This document shows positions 14,099-33,013 of a stretch of DNA of 64,000 bases, in pieces. Positions within the stretch are counted from its first letter, which is position 1; every line of letters starts with the position of its first letter. The notes under the pieces were generated by a model. That model was not told where the DNA came from. It saw only the letters and a list, made by a program, of their open reading frames with translations, and did not search any database. Location: contig CASEAR010000041.1 of NCBI GenBank assembly GCA_949285835.1, positions 53,618 through 117,617 on the forward strand, given 5' to 3'. A program made the position numbers and the translations under genes. The DNA comes from an uncultured Verrucomicrobiota bacterium. GTDB taxonomy: Bacteria; Verrucomicrobiota; Kiritimatiellia; RFP12; UBA3636.

Positions 14099-14785
14099 TC
14101 ATGTTTCCAAAAATCGAATCGTCCCACTGTAGAAAAACTGTCCCCATCCAATAGTGAAAATCAGGTTGCCGTACATTGCATGCTCAATGGCCGAGGCGGC
14201 AAAAGATTGTGTTTTCCTGTATGTGGACAGGAACAAAAGCCCTCCTAAGAAGGTGAATACAAGCGCATACATATTGACGAATACAATATGTGCAAACGAA
14301 AAAGCTGCGGCGCCTGCAAACAGCGAGACTTTACTTGAGAAGAGTTCTGCATAGCGATACTCGTAGAGGACTCGATAAAGTATTGTCTGCGGGATAACAG
14401 AAAGAATCGGGTAACAAAACACTACCAGAAGCCATAACTTCGGGTTTTGGGTTGGAAATGAAAACAGCAAGGTTTTGTCTAATTTAAGAAGAAGAAATAT
14501 CAGGAGCAGCGCTGCAAACATAAATCGGGGAAAGATCGTGTGCCAAAAAAAACAAATGTCAAAACCTCTGAGAAATATTTTTTTGTCAAATCCTGACGAT
14601 GTCAGCAAGTACACTAATGCGCATCCTCCAAATGTGATCAGTATAGATATAACACCGATCTTAATGCGAATACCAAACCTGCTGAATGCCGGGGGTAAAA
14701 TGGACACGCACAGGGGGAGAACCGCATACAGTAAAATAAACTCAAAGTATCTTAGGCTTCGCTTCATTCTCGAAAAATACGGCAT
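14099..14785 (-). CDS. CPBP-family intramembrane metalloprotease (CAAX protease/Abi-like)
   Basis: Multi-pass membrane protein. Motifs YEYRYAE (EExxxR-like), FSFAH (FxxxH) and HAMYGN (HxxxN) are in the expected order. Confidence 0.5.
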   Translation of the reverse strand: MPYFSRMKRSLRYFEFILLYAVLPLCVSILPPAFSRFGIRIKIGVISILITFGGCALVYLLTSSGFDKKIFLRGFDICFFWHTIFPRFMFAALLLIFLLLKLDKTLLFSFPTQNPKLWLLVVFCYPILSVIPQTILYRVLYEYRYAELFSSKVSLFAGAAAFSFAHIVFVNMYALVFTFLGGLLFLSTYRKTQSFAASAIEHAMYGNLIFTIGWGQFFYSGTIRFLET

Positions 14786-15825
14786 TATTCTTCCACAGAT
14801 TCAATGTCACCGTCAGAAGGAAGCTCGATGTCAGAAGATACAGAGACATTCTCCTGAGTTACAATGTGTTCTGAATGTACAACGGAGGAAACGTTTGTTT
14901 CTTTGTTTCCGCCAAAAGCTCTGCCGATAAATGAAAATCCGTCAGCAACCGCGCCACCGACAGCTTTTGCGCCGGATGCGACTCCTCCAACAACGGTTTC
15001 GCCGGCGTCGTAAACAAACGTCCCGGTTTTCACTGCAGCATTCCCAACAGCTTTTGCCCCGGAAGCAACGGCGCCTCCCGTGCTTTTGACTCCGTCAATC
15101 GCAAATCTTCCAACGTCCCCAACCGCATCCGAAGCGCCCTTTAACAGGTTTCCTCCGGCATCTATTATTCCGTTGCCAGCGTTTCCAACGTGTTTAACAA
15201 TTTCACCCACAATAGAGCCGGAGATAAGTGCAATTGCTTTAAAAGCGGTTATCCCTCCGCCCGTTTCTCCGATGTTGGTCAGAGTAATCTGCGGAATGGT
15301 TACGACAACACCGCGGCCGCCGAAGAATGATGCGGCAACTTTTACCTTTGAATCCGTGAGTGAGAGTAATTTGACAACAACAGTTTTTCCTTTTGTGTCA
15401 CCATCATCTGGTTCCGGCTTCGTCTCAGAATCATCAGAAAAACGCGATAGTAGGACAGACAAGTTGCTATCTTTCCCAGAAATTTCATAAGTTATCTCCG
15501 GCGCGTTGACAACAATCTTGTTTATCACTATTTTATCAGAAAGCAAGGAACGCACGGAGCAATTTACATGTGCGTCTTCGATGTAAACCATGTTATTTTT
15601 GAAATTTTCGGCGGGGGGGCCGATCTTAAGTCCGCTTATAAAAATATCACCAGAAATCAGGTTAACGGATACCTTTTCAACAGAAACATCGGCTCCCAGC
15701 ATTTTTGAGCCGTACGTTTCAGCTATCTGCTTGATATGTGAGCCAAGATGAAAAGCCGCATAGAAAAAAGCCGCGGTTAGGAGGAGTAACAAAACCGCGA
15801 CAACTGCTGCTATTTTTTTTAACAT
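14785..15825 (-). CDS. Membrane-anchored protein with an AsmA-like N-terminal domain and a Gly/Ala-rich repeat C-terminus
   Basis: ATG at 15825 (verified; MLKKIAAVVAVLLLLL is a TM or signal sequence). LGADVSVEKVSVNLISGDIFISGLKIGPP...KIVINKIVVNAPEITYE resembles the AsmA N-terminal domain. GGAVASGAKAVGNAAVKTG-type repeats follow. Its stop overlaps the CPBP start. Confidence 0.45.
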   Translation of the reverse strand: MLKKIAAVVAVLLLLLTAAFFYAAFHLGSHIKQIAETYGSKMLGADVSVEKVSVNLISGDIFISGLKIGPPAENFKNNMVYIEDAHVNCSVRSLLSDKIVINKIVVNAPEITYEISGKDSNLSVLLSRFSDDSETKPEPDDGDTKGKTVVVKLLSLTDSKVKVAASFFGGRGVVVTIPQITLTNIGETGGGITAFKAIALISGSIVGEIVKHVGNAGNGIIDAGGNLLKGASDAVGDVGRFAIDGVKSTGGAVASGAKAVGNAAVKTGTFVYDAGETVVGGVASGAKAVGGAVADGFSFIGRAFGGNKETNVSSVVHSEHIVTQENVSVSSDIELPSDGDIESVEE

Positions 15826-15969
15826 TTTTCGCTCCAGATAAATGAATTCACACCACGCAACGAAAAACAACCCAACTTCCGAGATGGTAACGCAATGCAT
15901 TGTGTTTGTCACGTACAATAGCATGCTGACAGTTGTCGGCAAAGTTGCAGAATGTAACGTCCATACCCA

Positions 15970-16165
15970 AAGGAAGGATTACAGACATGAAAAGAAACGC
16001 CCAAAAGAGGTGCATCCGCATTGCCGTCATGCGCGCGGATCATTCTTGGAAAACAGTGATGTTTCGCTTTCTGCTAAAATGGAAGTTGAAACAATATCCA
16101 CGCAGAAAGGAAACATCATGGCGGGGTATAGCAAATATTCTCATCCCCGCACACATCTTAAATTT
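15970..16165 (+). repeat. Conserved intergenic element, copy B (about 75-80% identical to the reverse complement of 32087-32290)
   Basis: Direct nucleotide comparison of the two loci. Shared blocks include CGCCCAAAAGAGG, ATGCG.GC.GATCATT, CGCTTTCTGCT.AAATGGA, CGCAGAAAGGAAACATCAT and ATATTCTCATCC...CATCTTAAATTT. Contains an 8-bp stem, CTTTCTGC/GCAGAAAG. Confidence 0.6.
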
Positions 16166-16229
16166 GGAAACCGCGAACGAACACATATTTCCTTGCCAGA
16201 GGACGAACACAAAGATATCATCTCACCAA

Positions 16230-16832
16230 ATGTTTCGCTATCCGTACAAAATTCTAAAGATATGTTCCCTTCATGCGGCAACTGCATTCTGGACAGCGTA
16301 TACGCGTCTTGTTTTGCGACTGAACGGGGTTCAGTTCGGGAAAAAACTTAAAGCCGTAGGGCGTCCGATCGTTAACGTCTCTATTGGCGGAAAGGCGTTC
16401 TTCGGACGAAATTTGTACATCCGCACAGGCGTTCGGTATACTGAAGTCGGGGCCGCCGGCAGCCGCATACTCGTCGGTCCTCAGGGCACGTTGACAATCG
16501 GTGACAATGTAGGCATGTCAAATGCCACGATCGTTGCGGACCAGTCAGTATCCATTGGCAGCCACGTTCTTATCGGAGGAGGAGTACAGATATTCGACAC
16601 CAATTTTCATTCCACTGATACATCGGTCCGCACGGGAGGGAATGAGACAAGAAAAGACGCAAGAAAAGCTCCGGTAGTCATCGAAGACAACGTTTTTATA
16701 GGAACGAACGCCATAATTTGCAAGGGCGTGACAATCGGACGCAATTCAATCGTGGCGGCAGGATCTGTCGTCGTAAAAACCATACCCCCAAATGAAATCT
16801 GGGGCGGCAATCCAGCACAAAAACTTTCGTAG
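16230..16832 (+). CDS. Hexapeptide-repeat (left-handed beta-helix) sugar O-acetyltransferase
   Basis: [40 protein letters not shown]...[31 protein letters not shown] are hexapeptide repeats. ATG at 16230 (verified) gives 200 aa. The ORF stays open upstream through the repeat element. Confidence 0.7.
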
Positions 16833-21337: not shown

Positions 21338-22690
21338 TCATGCTGCATTTTGCCAAAACGGCAGGATGAGCGGTTCCAGCGCTATGAAAAATAGCGGCCG
21401 GAATCGGAAGGGCAAAAAAGTTTCAGTGTTCCACCTCCATCGGATCAAGTTCGCCGCAAGGAATGTCATGGCGATAGCAGTTTCAGAACAATCTCTGCGC
21501 CAAGCCATAACCCGTCCCTGCCCAAAGCGTCGTTTACACTGCCCAAATTTTCCCTCAATGGCATTGCGAGCAGAATTGTCGGTGAGCTGCTGCTTGAGAA
21601 TTTCCGGATTCACGATTTTTGCAGGCCGCCCGAAACGCGGCCCGGAAAGCCTGATCCCATGTTCTGCGCAATATCGCAGATTTTCTCTGGTGCGCAACAA
21701 CTTGTCTGCCGGAACAGCTTCCGGATAATGCCCCGTTCGGGCACTATAGCGTTCACAAATCATTTGCAGATCGCAGCCTTCATTGTATGCGTCCCATGAC
21801 AGTCGTCTATTCTTGCATACCCATTATCCAAACTGGCGGTTAGTTTTGCTCCGAATTCGGTTTCATGTCCGGCCTTGCCGCGCACGATCGGACGAACATG
21901 CGGCTGATGCAAACTGACAATTCGCTCATCAATGCGCCTCGAATGAGTCTCCAGCATAGTTCACTGTTGCTCGTAAACGGTTCGGATCACGATCAGCTGT
22001 TCTGAAATGATTTGCAGGATATCCCCGCAACGATCACGCAGCTTTGCTATGAACCCCAGATTCCGGCGGATGGCGTTGAGCAGAAAATGCAAAGCTACGC
22101 GACGTTTTGATACGCTTCACTTCGGATGTTTGATGTTCTCGTGATAACGCTTGCGGCAGATTTCCCGTTTCGTCCGGGCCGGGGATCCCTGTCGCCGCAT
22201 TGTTCACGCAATTTGTCGATAACTGCCTCTGTGAGTTCCTGCGCTTCGTGACCAGATTCAAATCCGTCGGATACTTGATGTCTGCCGGCGCACAAGTCGC
22301 ATCCATCAGAATTGTTCCGGAATTTTCTGCCTCACCTGCACTTGCATTCTCTGGCGGGACACCGCCTCTGTCCCTAGGAGGGTTCTCTTCCGGACTGTTG
22401 GATTTTTTCGACAACTCGATTATCTTGTCATTCAACGACATCACAACTTCTCTGGGCAGGCGTTTGCGAAAATGCGTCAGCAGCGCGGCGCTGAACGGGG
22501 CCTTCGTCTGGAAGCTCTTGAAGCCGAGAAAATATTGAAGATACGGATTTTCAATCACGCTTTCCACTGCTTCACGATCGCTCAGACCAAGTATTTCCTT
22601 GATCAGCAAGGCGCCAAGTGCAATACGCACATTCAAAGCAACATCGCCTCGTCCATGGCTTTTGAAGTGTCTGGCATATTCTGCCTCCAT
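21338..22690 (-). mobile_element. Degraded IS5/IS1182-type transposase gene, split into three minus-strand ORFs
   Basis: N-terminal DUF772-like LLIKEILGLSDREAVESVIENPYLQYFLGF. DDE region LMDATCAPADIKYPTD. C-terminal NAIEGKFGQCKRRFGQGRVMA...AANLIRW. The three ORFs (22034-22690, 21760-21957, 21338-21763) together span about 450 codons. Confidence 0.65.
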
Positions 22691-31711: not shown

Positions 31712-32086
31712 ATCAACACAGAACGCTATCGTATATGCATAAATTATGGCAAAATGCTATAACAAATTCAACATTAACCTACGGGGAGTTCCACTCATCC
31801 GAGCCCACTTCGATTTTTCAAGGGATAGACGCGGTGCGCTCCCACCTCGCTAATACCCGAAAACATAAGTTCCATTTTGCCAATGCGGCACCGTAAAAAT
31901 TATATGCTGCGTGCCCATGAGCCGACAAAAGGACGCCCCATCTCCGGATTTACGTTCCATTGCGGCGGCGCCACTGCAGGCACGAACGCTGAATTCTGCG
32001 GCCCTTCCGTCATTCCGCATCCGTCTGGCGTTCCATCGCATACTGAACAGTTCCCGGCTTTTAGTCTGCGATCCTTCACAGTGCTT

Positions 32087-32290
32087 AAATTTAAGATGAG
32101 CACGTGGATGAGAATATTGAGAATATATGGTATGTTTTCCAATGATGTTTCCTTTCTGCGCGAATTGTGTTGAGGGCTCCATTTCAGCAGAAAGCGGAAG
32201 ATCACCGTTTCCCGGAAATGATCTGCCCGCATGGCGGCAGCGGGGATCTCCTCTTTTGGGCGTTTTTTTCATGGCGCATGCCTTCCCTTC
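32087..32290 (-). repeat. Conserved intergenic element, copy A (inverted relative to copy B at 15970-16165)
   Basis: The reverse complement aligns with 15970-16165, with one 9-nt indel. The stem CCTTTCTGCG...CAGCAGAAAGCGG is retained. Confidence 0.6.
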
Positions 32291-32407
32291 GGGTATGGAC
32301 GCTGCATTCTGCACTTTTCACGGCTTTAACCACACACCGCCATTGCTTGCAACCCCATTGCAATAATGCTAGAATCCGTGCTTGTTTGACGGAATCGAAC
32401 GGGGAAG

Positions 32408-33013
32408 ATGAAGGGGAATGTATTCGCAATGACGGCGACTCCATTTGAAGACATCGTAAAAGCGGCGGAGGAAGCCGTAGGTTCGCTGCGCAGCCTTGCA
32501 GACAAGTTTGAGGCCGCGGCGGAGCTGTTCACCGGCACCCTCCTGAACGGCGGTACAGTTCTCACAGCAGGCAACGGCGGCAGCGCGGCCGAAGCCATGC
32601 ACATGGCGGAAGAGCTGTCCGGCAGATACAAGGGGGAAAGGCGGCCGCTCCCCGGAATATCGCTCTGCTCGGACGGCACCGCCATGACATGCATATGCAA
32701 TGATTACGGCGCCGGAGCCGTTTTCTCCCGTCAGGTGGAGGCCATAGGCCGCAAAGGGGATCTTCTGGTCGTCTTCTCCACCAGCGGGAACTCCGGCAAC
32801 ATCATTGACGCCGTCGCGGCCGCAAAGAAAAAAGACATAAGAGTGATAGCGCTGCTCGGACGCGGAGGCGGCGCCATGAGAGGCGCCGCCGATGTGGAGA
32901 TCATCGTCAACGCCGCCGACTCCGCGCACATTCAGGAAGCGCATCAAGTCGTAATGCACGCACTGCTTGAGCGCATAGAGGAAGCTCTTGCACAGGAAAC
33001 CTGCGTCCCATGA
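32408..33013 (+). CDS. gmhA: SIS-domain phosphoheptose isomerase (D-sedoheptulose 7-phosphate isomerase)
   Basis: GNGGSAAEAMHMAEELSGRY and the later VFSTSGNSGN are GmhA/DiaA SIS motifs. About 200 aa. Confidence 0.75.
   Translation: MKGNVFAMTATPFEDIVKAAEEAVGSLRSLADKFEAAAELFTGTLLNGGTVLTAGNGGSAAEAMHMAEELSGRYKGERRPLPGISLCSDGTAMTCICNDYGAGAVFSRQVEAIGRKGDLLVVFSTSGNSGNIIDAVAAAKKKDIRVIALLGRGGGAMRGAADVEIIVNAADSAHIQEAHQVVMHALLERIEEALAQETCVP

Follow-up and report, generated by a model that had tools for sequence, protein, structure and literature searches.

Two inverted intergenic repeats in a Verrucomicrobiota genome are probably decayed left ends of an IS30-family insertion sequence

The window analyzed here is a stretch of 64,000 nucleotides from an uncultured Verrucomicrobiota bacterium. 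Its gene content gives a loose impression of a PVC-group organism. Between a divergent AsmA-like gene and an acetyltransferase gene, it carries a block of sequence that recurs in inverted orientation at about 32 kb. Initially, a reading of the sequence alone had proposed that the repeated block is a host element, i.e., a leader RNA, a small RNA, or a cis-regulatory module. The question raised by this locus is what the block is and whether it serves the genes beside it. We conclude, with a probability of roughly 0.8, that the two copies (A and B) derive from the left end of a single IS30-family insertion sequence (IS) that was once active in this lineage, and that both are now decayed and truncated.

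Two copies in the window and their relatives in metagenomes

The homology of the two copies is not in doubt. With blastn, A and B aligned at 75.3% identity over 235 nt (E = 4.6e-38), and the mean column identity in a MAFFT alignment was 78% over the aligned core. The similarity had been reported as 75 to 80% between 15970-16165 and the reverse complement of 32087-32290. Those blocks exist, but they are slightly too small, since the true extents are 15941-16184 (+) for A and 32322-32066 (−) for B. Using short and long family profiles, nhmmer aligned copy A from 15937/15938 to 16180/16193. Apart from the A/B pair, a repeat search of the 64 kb found no long repeat. The 22-nt left-end motif matched the window only at A and B, compared to 0.01 matches expected by chance. 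The features of the repeated unit, which we call the module, are as follows.

15941..16184, + strand: copy A, the whole module, a probable truncated IS30-family left end (nhmmer; the DNA to its left is unrelated between copies)
15941..15970, + strand: putative left terminal repeat (IRL) region AAAGTTGCAGAATGTAACGTCCATACCCAA, placed by an abrupt rise in information content; conservation here is among the strongest in the family
Left-terminus motif of the module: GAAAGCTGCAGAATGTAACGTCC
15972..15989, + strand: purine-rich, Shine-Dalgarno (SD)-like tract and ATG1 (15987-15989), conserved in all copies, with the ATG invariant in 10/10
16056..16074, + strand: hairpin 5' arm GTGATGTTTCGCTTTCTGC (RNAalifold consensus; also in single-sequence folds)
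16072..16080, + strand: TGCTAAAAT, extended −10-like, at the start of the hairpin loop; candidate transposase promoter read from sequence
16102..16119, + strand: hairpin 3' arm GCAGAAAGGAAACATCAT, with SD-like AAGGAA and, at its end, the AT of the transposase ATG
16118..16183, + strand: remnant of transposase codons 1 to ~22 in frame +2 of copy A, homologous to the transposase start in the long copies
32066..32322, − strand: copy B, a second probable truncated IS30-family left end, inverted with respect to A
32205-32187 and 32159-32142, − strand: hairpin arms of copy B
32143-32141, − strand: transposase start codon of copy B, mutated to ATT

Besides the 9-nt indel that had already been noticed, two 1-nt indels close to the 5' end distinguish A from B. 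All codon positions have substitutions, as had also been stated, with counts of 10, 12, and 19 in the best frame. The 9-nt indel is accounted for by slippage after the transposase start. Tandem slippage duplications that differ by copy lie just 3' of this start, being ~25 nt long in contigs L013 (3895-3945) and L015 (6000-6050) and 9 nt long (ATATTCTCA) in copy B (window 32142-32110, −).

Our route to further copies was through the spurious open reading frames (ORFs) predicted by gene callers across the element. With the peptide read in the ATG1 frame of A as the query, a protein search led to one protein (P0001), and HMMER against 1.84 billion representative proteins added six further relatives. 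A follow-up profile search gave ten proteins, and their contigs hold exactly one module copy each. A BLASTN or nhmmer search for additional copies had been suggested, and such copies do exist: counting A, B, and a variant 5' half in contig L001, there are at least 11 distinct copies, one per locus. All were found in ENA or Logan metagenome assemblies, and their source looks like one lineage. The 11 copies are dispersed in different gene contexts with unrelated flanks. Exact-pattern scans gave no copy in GTDB species genomes or in IMG/VR viral contigs, and the four matches in JGI metagenomes were all due to chance. Thus, the family is known only from ENA/Logan assemblies. Many of the repeat-bearing contigs are short or end in or near the module, as is usual for repeats in assemblies.

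All copies begin at a common sharp left boundary, (T/G)GAAAG(C/T)TGCAGAATGTAACGTCCATACCC, upstream of which the DNA is unrelated from copy to copy. When the 11 copies were anchored on the left-end motif, the information content jumped at this boundary, and no conserved motif rose above noise upstream of it. We also considered a sigma-54 or sigma-70 promoter as the explanation for the conserved boundary TGCAGAATG and rejected it, as there is no consistent −35 element or spacing across copies. Similarly, purifying selection on the module was considered from the comparison of contigs L013 and L020, in which the module is 100% identical compared to 89% downstream. This was rejected because L013 and L020 show no difference up to L013 position 4078 and simply diverge from there on.

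The module could in principle encode a small basic protein starting at ATG1 (MKRNAQKR...). ATG1 and the purine tract upstream of it are invariant, and gene callers predict ORFs of 59 to 182 aa from this codon. The reading frame itself is not conserved, as indels of 1, 2, 4, 6, 9, 12, and 25 nt are tolerated across copies. Different frames of A encode the peptide FRFLLKW and a 13-residue peptide, whereas both are part of the same ORF in P0003, P0005, and P0008. In addition, the substitutions given above are nearly uniform over codon positions, Pfam detected nothing on any ORF called over the relics, and the 1.84 billion representative proteins include no homologues outside the repeat family. 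The frame switching and the indels that are not multiples of three imply that conservation is at the nucleotide level. The sequence-only reading had also preferred a nucleotide element to a small protein, and on this point we agree; we give the small-protein explanation almost no chance of being correct.

Connection of the module to a probable IS30-family transposase

At three independent loci, the module continues unbroken into 520 to 870 nt of shared sequence, which is a decayed transposase gene. The contexts of these long forms are the neighborhood of a VTC gene and dnaA (L013/L020), the interval between dnaN and gidA (L015), and the neighborhood of a radical-SAM gene (L017/L018). Two of the relics, L015:5476-8401 and L013:3646-4323, are in replication-origin neighborhoods. 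The former is within a stretch of ~2.9 kb between dnaN and gidA that is partly AT-rich and has no convincing genes, while the latter is just downstream of the 3' end of dnaA.

We assigned the gene tentatively to the IS30 family by three comparisons. A stitched translation of the L018 remnant matched the NCBIfam profile transpos_IS30 (NF033563) over profile positions 27-159 of 267 with an E value of 6.7e-15 and a score of 55.5 bits. This score falls short of the curated cutoff of 80, as the remnant consists of only the decayed N-terminal half, up to the motif GHLEMDTV. A tblastn search against plasmids returned 279 records; among the listed matches with annotation, all are IS30-family transposases, and the best cover 95% of the query. 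By BLASTP, the remnant matched ARC34870.1, an IS30-family transposase from a Streptococcus equinus plasmid (CP020439.2), with an E value of 4e-14.

In the last alignment, query residue 12 (AHLKFEDRER) is paired with residue 4 of ARC34870.1. This places the transposase start (ATG 16118-16120 in A) inside the module. It follows that transposase codons 1 to ~21, which we take to belong to the first helix of a helix-turn-helix (HTH), make up the last ~65 nt of the module. An N-terminal HTH was undetected by the Pfam and NCBIfam HMMs on their own. Further along, the motif GH.E.DTV (GHLEMDTV in the remnant) presumably contains the first catalytic Asp.

Judged by its sequence, the module is probably the left end of an IS30-family IS, made up of a putative terminal repeat, a leader of ~170 to 175 nt, and the first ~21 transposase codons. 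The AAAGTTGCAGAATGTAACGTCCATACCCAA region would be the transposase-binding end (IRL). A leader of ~170 to 175 nt between terminus and start codon is much longer than is typical for the IS30 family, which speaks against the assignment. Elements of this family have terminal inverted repeats of ~20 to 30 bp at both ends and create a target-site duplication of 2 to 3 bp. Multiple dispersed copies with unrelated flanks, as the family would lead one to expect, were found (11 copies). A full-length copy, a right terminal repeat, and a target-site duplication were not recovered among these copies, and no contig reaches the right end, so the boundaries of the IS are only half defined. The left boundary is placed to within ~3 nt, and at this precision a 2- to 3-bp repeat beside it is uninformative. 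An inverted left-end motif was not found near any copy, even with 5 mismatches allowed. The transposase remnants contain stops and frameshifts, and no copy among those recovered is intact. The IS30-family element is apparently new and uncatalogued.

A hairpin over the transposase start

RNAalifold predicts a hairpin of 15 consensus pairs in the module, with 18 pairs in copy A. An 8-bp stem, CTTTCTGC...GCAGAAAG, had been described as retained in both copies, and it proved to be the inner part of this longer hairpin in each of them. Across 10 copies, 96% of cells are paired compared to 40 to 60% when the 3' partners are slid by 1 to 3 columns. Covariation, proposed earlier as a check on the structure, is slight in these 10 copies and consists of compensatory changes at two pairs in L021; in L018 and L008, pairing is kept as G-U after several A-to-G changes. 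The observed values only modestly exceed the shuffle controls, with 5 to 19 of 500 shuffles reaching them. Compared to its shuffles, copy A has the better fold (z = −3.7). Copy B folds no better than its shuffles (z = −0.6) and has two uncompensated mismatches in the outer stem.

The position of the hairpin suggests what it may have done. Its 3' arm GCAGAAAGGAAACATCAT includes the SD-like AAGGAA and ends in the AU of the transposase ATG, with the G as the next base. The stem covers the SD sequence and start codon of the transposase, and this arrangement is conserved among copies, as in leader hairpins that sequester a ribosome-binding site. Directly after the 5' arm is TGCTAAAAT, which is partly conserved across copies and was not called by our consensus promoter scan.

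From this arrangement, we propose the following for an intact element. Transcripts that enter from outside or from upstream would contain both arms, and their folding would hide the ribosome-binding site, so that translation of the transposase may have been kept low. A transcript starting from a putative promoter between the arms, with TGCTAAAAT as its −10 element just past the 5' arm, would lack the 5' arm and could be translated. Transcripts with both arms that hide the ribosome-binding site are a classical arrangement for self-repression in ISs, and fold-back inhibition is known for IS10 and IS50. Both copies in the window are dead, with no transposase body in either and with the start codon of B lost (ATT). 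The conserved blocks of A and B would then reflect constraints from the active IS and not a present function in the host.

The hairpin is also an argument for the original idea of a host cis-regulatory RNA, here common to several operons. The IS30 transposase would then be just one of the downstream genes, or the IS would target the element. The conserved stem, its slight covariation, the favorable z score of copy A, and the location of copies in 5' regions of unrelated genes are all consistent with such an RNA. The transposase N terminus, though, begins inside the module, which makes the module and the transposase gene one unit, and the junction between them is identical in three independent loci. 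Some copies have no downstream gene, and the z score of copy B is that of shuffled sequence. A search of Rfam, which had been suggested as a check, gave no match at the gathering score in the window, and at E values up to 10 there were only chance-level matches (A, B, L008, and L015). Since the reading frame is continuous into the transposase, the host-RNA explanation is largely refuted, and we regard it as very unlikely. The block that had been taken for a host leader RNA, small RNA, or cis-regulatory module is, at three independent loci, the probable 5' end of a decayed IS30-family IS.

Neighboring genes, short copies, and known systems

The genes around the two relics are as follows.

14785..15828, − strand: DUF748/AsmA-like gene, divergent, ~112 nt from the left end of A (Pfam DUF748, E = 8e-16)
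16231..16832, + strand: hexapeptide-repeat acetyltransferase that heads the + strand glycan operon, 46 nt past A (Pfam Hexapep)
32429..33013, + strand: SIS-domain (GmhA-like) gene, divergent, ~107 nt from the left end of B (Pfam SIS_2, E = 5.5e-26); called as 194 aa in contigs L005 and L006
30590..31711, − strand: GntR plus Peripla_BP_3 (AraR-like) regulator, on the strand of B and ~355 nt past its end (Pfam)

Each copy had been described as lying directly 5' of a different gene. This is true of A and the acetyltransferase, which heads a run of GT4 glycosyltransferase genes on the + strand, but the regulator does not begin until ~355 nt after B. One copy is in frame with the acetyltransferase ORF, as had been said; it is the copy at 15.9 kb, which is named A here and had been named B. 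A gene caller ran the acetyltransferase ORF back across the IS relic (P0010, 15987-16832, +), which added 81 residues and gave a product of 281 aa compared to ~200 aa from the ATG at 16231.

A promoter scan identified a sigma-70-like promoter, TTGCCA-17-TATCAT, at window 16193-16221 (+), with 10/12 consensus matches. This predicted promoter is outside the repeat, between A and the acetyltransferase, and it ends 10 nt before the ATG at 16231. A transcript from it would be nearly leaderless. Because the promoter is outside the repeat, the acetyltransferase operon need not depend on relic A. The two copies probably have no specific role in the window.

Contig L001 shows the acetyltransferase-GT operon of the window behind a different upstream region, in which a LacI-type regulator takes the place of the DUF748 gene and a Pel9A-like gene is also present. 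Comparison of L001:5318-5425 with window 15941-16048 gave 15 mismatches (within 15944-16048), followed by 1 mismatch in the next 4170 nt. At the L001 junction, either two relic copies have recombined within the module or the assembly is chimeric, and the relics may be substrates for recombination.

This junction bears on the possibility that A and B are the outward-facing ends of a composite transposon carrying a 16.4-kb glycan-synthesis segment. The geometry fits, with A and B inverted, their terminal repeats outward, and two convergent operons between them, and in L001 the acetyltransferase operon has a different left-hand context with its junction inside the module. On the other hand, the mismatch pattern in L001 points to homologous recombination or assembly chimerism and not to transposition of a segment. 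A and B are only 75% identical and have no transposase genes, and the B-side flanks are the same in all contigs seen. The G+C content, ~45% at 8-26 kb and 55-60% at 26-40 kb, shifts at ~26 kb and not at A or B. We find a composite transposon highly improbable.

Among the genes in the low-GC part at 8-26 kb are glycosyltransferase, pyruvyl-transferase, and flippase-like genes, and this part may have been acquired horizontally as an island. Another transposase remnant (Pfam DUF772), unrelated to the IS30-type one, is present at window 22034-22690 (−) and ~21.3-21.8 kb, between the two convergent glycan operons. In contigs L002 and L003, a DDE_Tnp_1_2 ORF was called there.

The lengths and orientations of the relics are less easily explained by decay. 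Seven short copies (A, B, L008, L016, L014, L019, and L021) stop at positions 274-286 (± ~20 nt) of the 843-position long profile, and their ends are within ~12 to 30 nt of each other. Longer relics stop at long-profile position 565 (L013) or 841 (L015) or run off their contigs. In a neighbor-joining tree, which is weak because it was built on ~250 nt, the short copies do not form one clade. In all 10 of the 10 informative contexts, the left end of the module faces the start of a divergent gene 46 to 340 nt away, which would occur about 1 time in 1000 under a 50:50 expectation. Random truncation fails to explain the common end of the short copies, and random insertion fails to explain the 10/10 polarity. 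A target preference for promoter-proximal DNA or survivorship is a possible source of the polarity.

We considered whether the short form of ~245 nt is a discrete IS-derived unit that persists or spreads as a portable promoter and leader. Putative mobile promoters, that is, homologous 5' intergenic sequences before non-homologous genes in one genome, have been described, and IS termini and scars of autonomous elements are listed as sources of them (Matus-Garcia et al. 2012, PMC3488235). The shared end point of seven copies that are not one clade and the constant facing of a divergent gene start agree with this idea. Likewise, the genes that follow A, B, and L008 are unrelated to one another (acetyltransferase, GntR-type regulator, and AraC-type regulator, respectively), and the module contains promoter-like and SD-like motifs. 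Against it, L013, L016, and L014 have no nearby co-directional gene, copy A is separated from the acetyltransferase by the sigma-70-like promoter outside the repeat, and the tree on which the clade argument depends is weak. There is also no inverted left end at the right boundary and hence no known transposition route for the short form. Overall, we think that such a unit is unlikely. A stronger version is slightly less likely again: that the short form is a one-ended IS30 left-end derivative, produced or retained by a specific mechanism with a fixed breakpoint at about codon 21 and no right repeat, positioned beside gene starts in a fixed polarity, and serving as a portable promoter and leader for neighbors that include both convergent glycan operons. 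If the constant length and the polarity are in fact mechanistic, they would indicate domestication of an IS end or an unusual non-autonomous element.

Taken together, our data favor the reading of A and B as decayed left ends of an IS30-family element, and they are then ordinary mobile-element debris. This removes a false lead, namely that the glycan cluster has a new regulatory RNA. It also corrects the annotation, in which gene callers fused or invented ORFs over the relics (e.g., P0010), and the hypothetical proteins of 59 to 182 aa in public sets are spurious. Only two features of the short copies, their constant length and their fixed polarity, are perhaps worth a further look.

Among known systems, miniature inverted-repeat transposable elements (MITEs) resemble the module in being short (here ~245 nt), non-coding, multicopy IS derivatives of fairly constant length. 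Unlike MITEs, the module has no terminal inverted repeat at its right boundary; we rejected this class after a local alignment of the left end with the reverse-complemented right boundary gave a score that 1204/2000 shuffles reached or exceeded. Compared to putative mobile promoters, A and B likewise are homologous 5' intergenic sequences upstream of non-homologous genes. However, they are 75% identical overall, which is below the threshold of that survey (≥80% identity over 50 to 100 nt; PMC3488235), and the promoter activity of A and B is putative.

The IS200 tnpA leader contains a stem-loop that sequesters the SD sequence, for which there is experimental support (PMC4513863). The module has no sequence similarity to IS200 or to IS10/IS50 and belongs to a different IS family, and its leader role is predicted from sequence. 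As in the tnpA 5' untranslated region, the 3' arm of the conserved left-end hairpin of the module covers the SD sequence and start codon of the transposase.

Relative to the IS30 family, as represented by ARC34870.1, protein identity is only ~28%, and every copy of the module that we have seen is dead or runs off its contig. Nevertheless, the remnant aligns over ~215 residues that include the HTH (HL..ER...SR..RELxR), a SPEQI-like motif, TIY, and GH.E.DTV. Like members of that family, the module is multicopy and dispersed, has a sharp terminus, and is decaying into pseudogenes.
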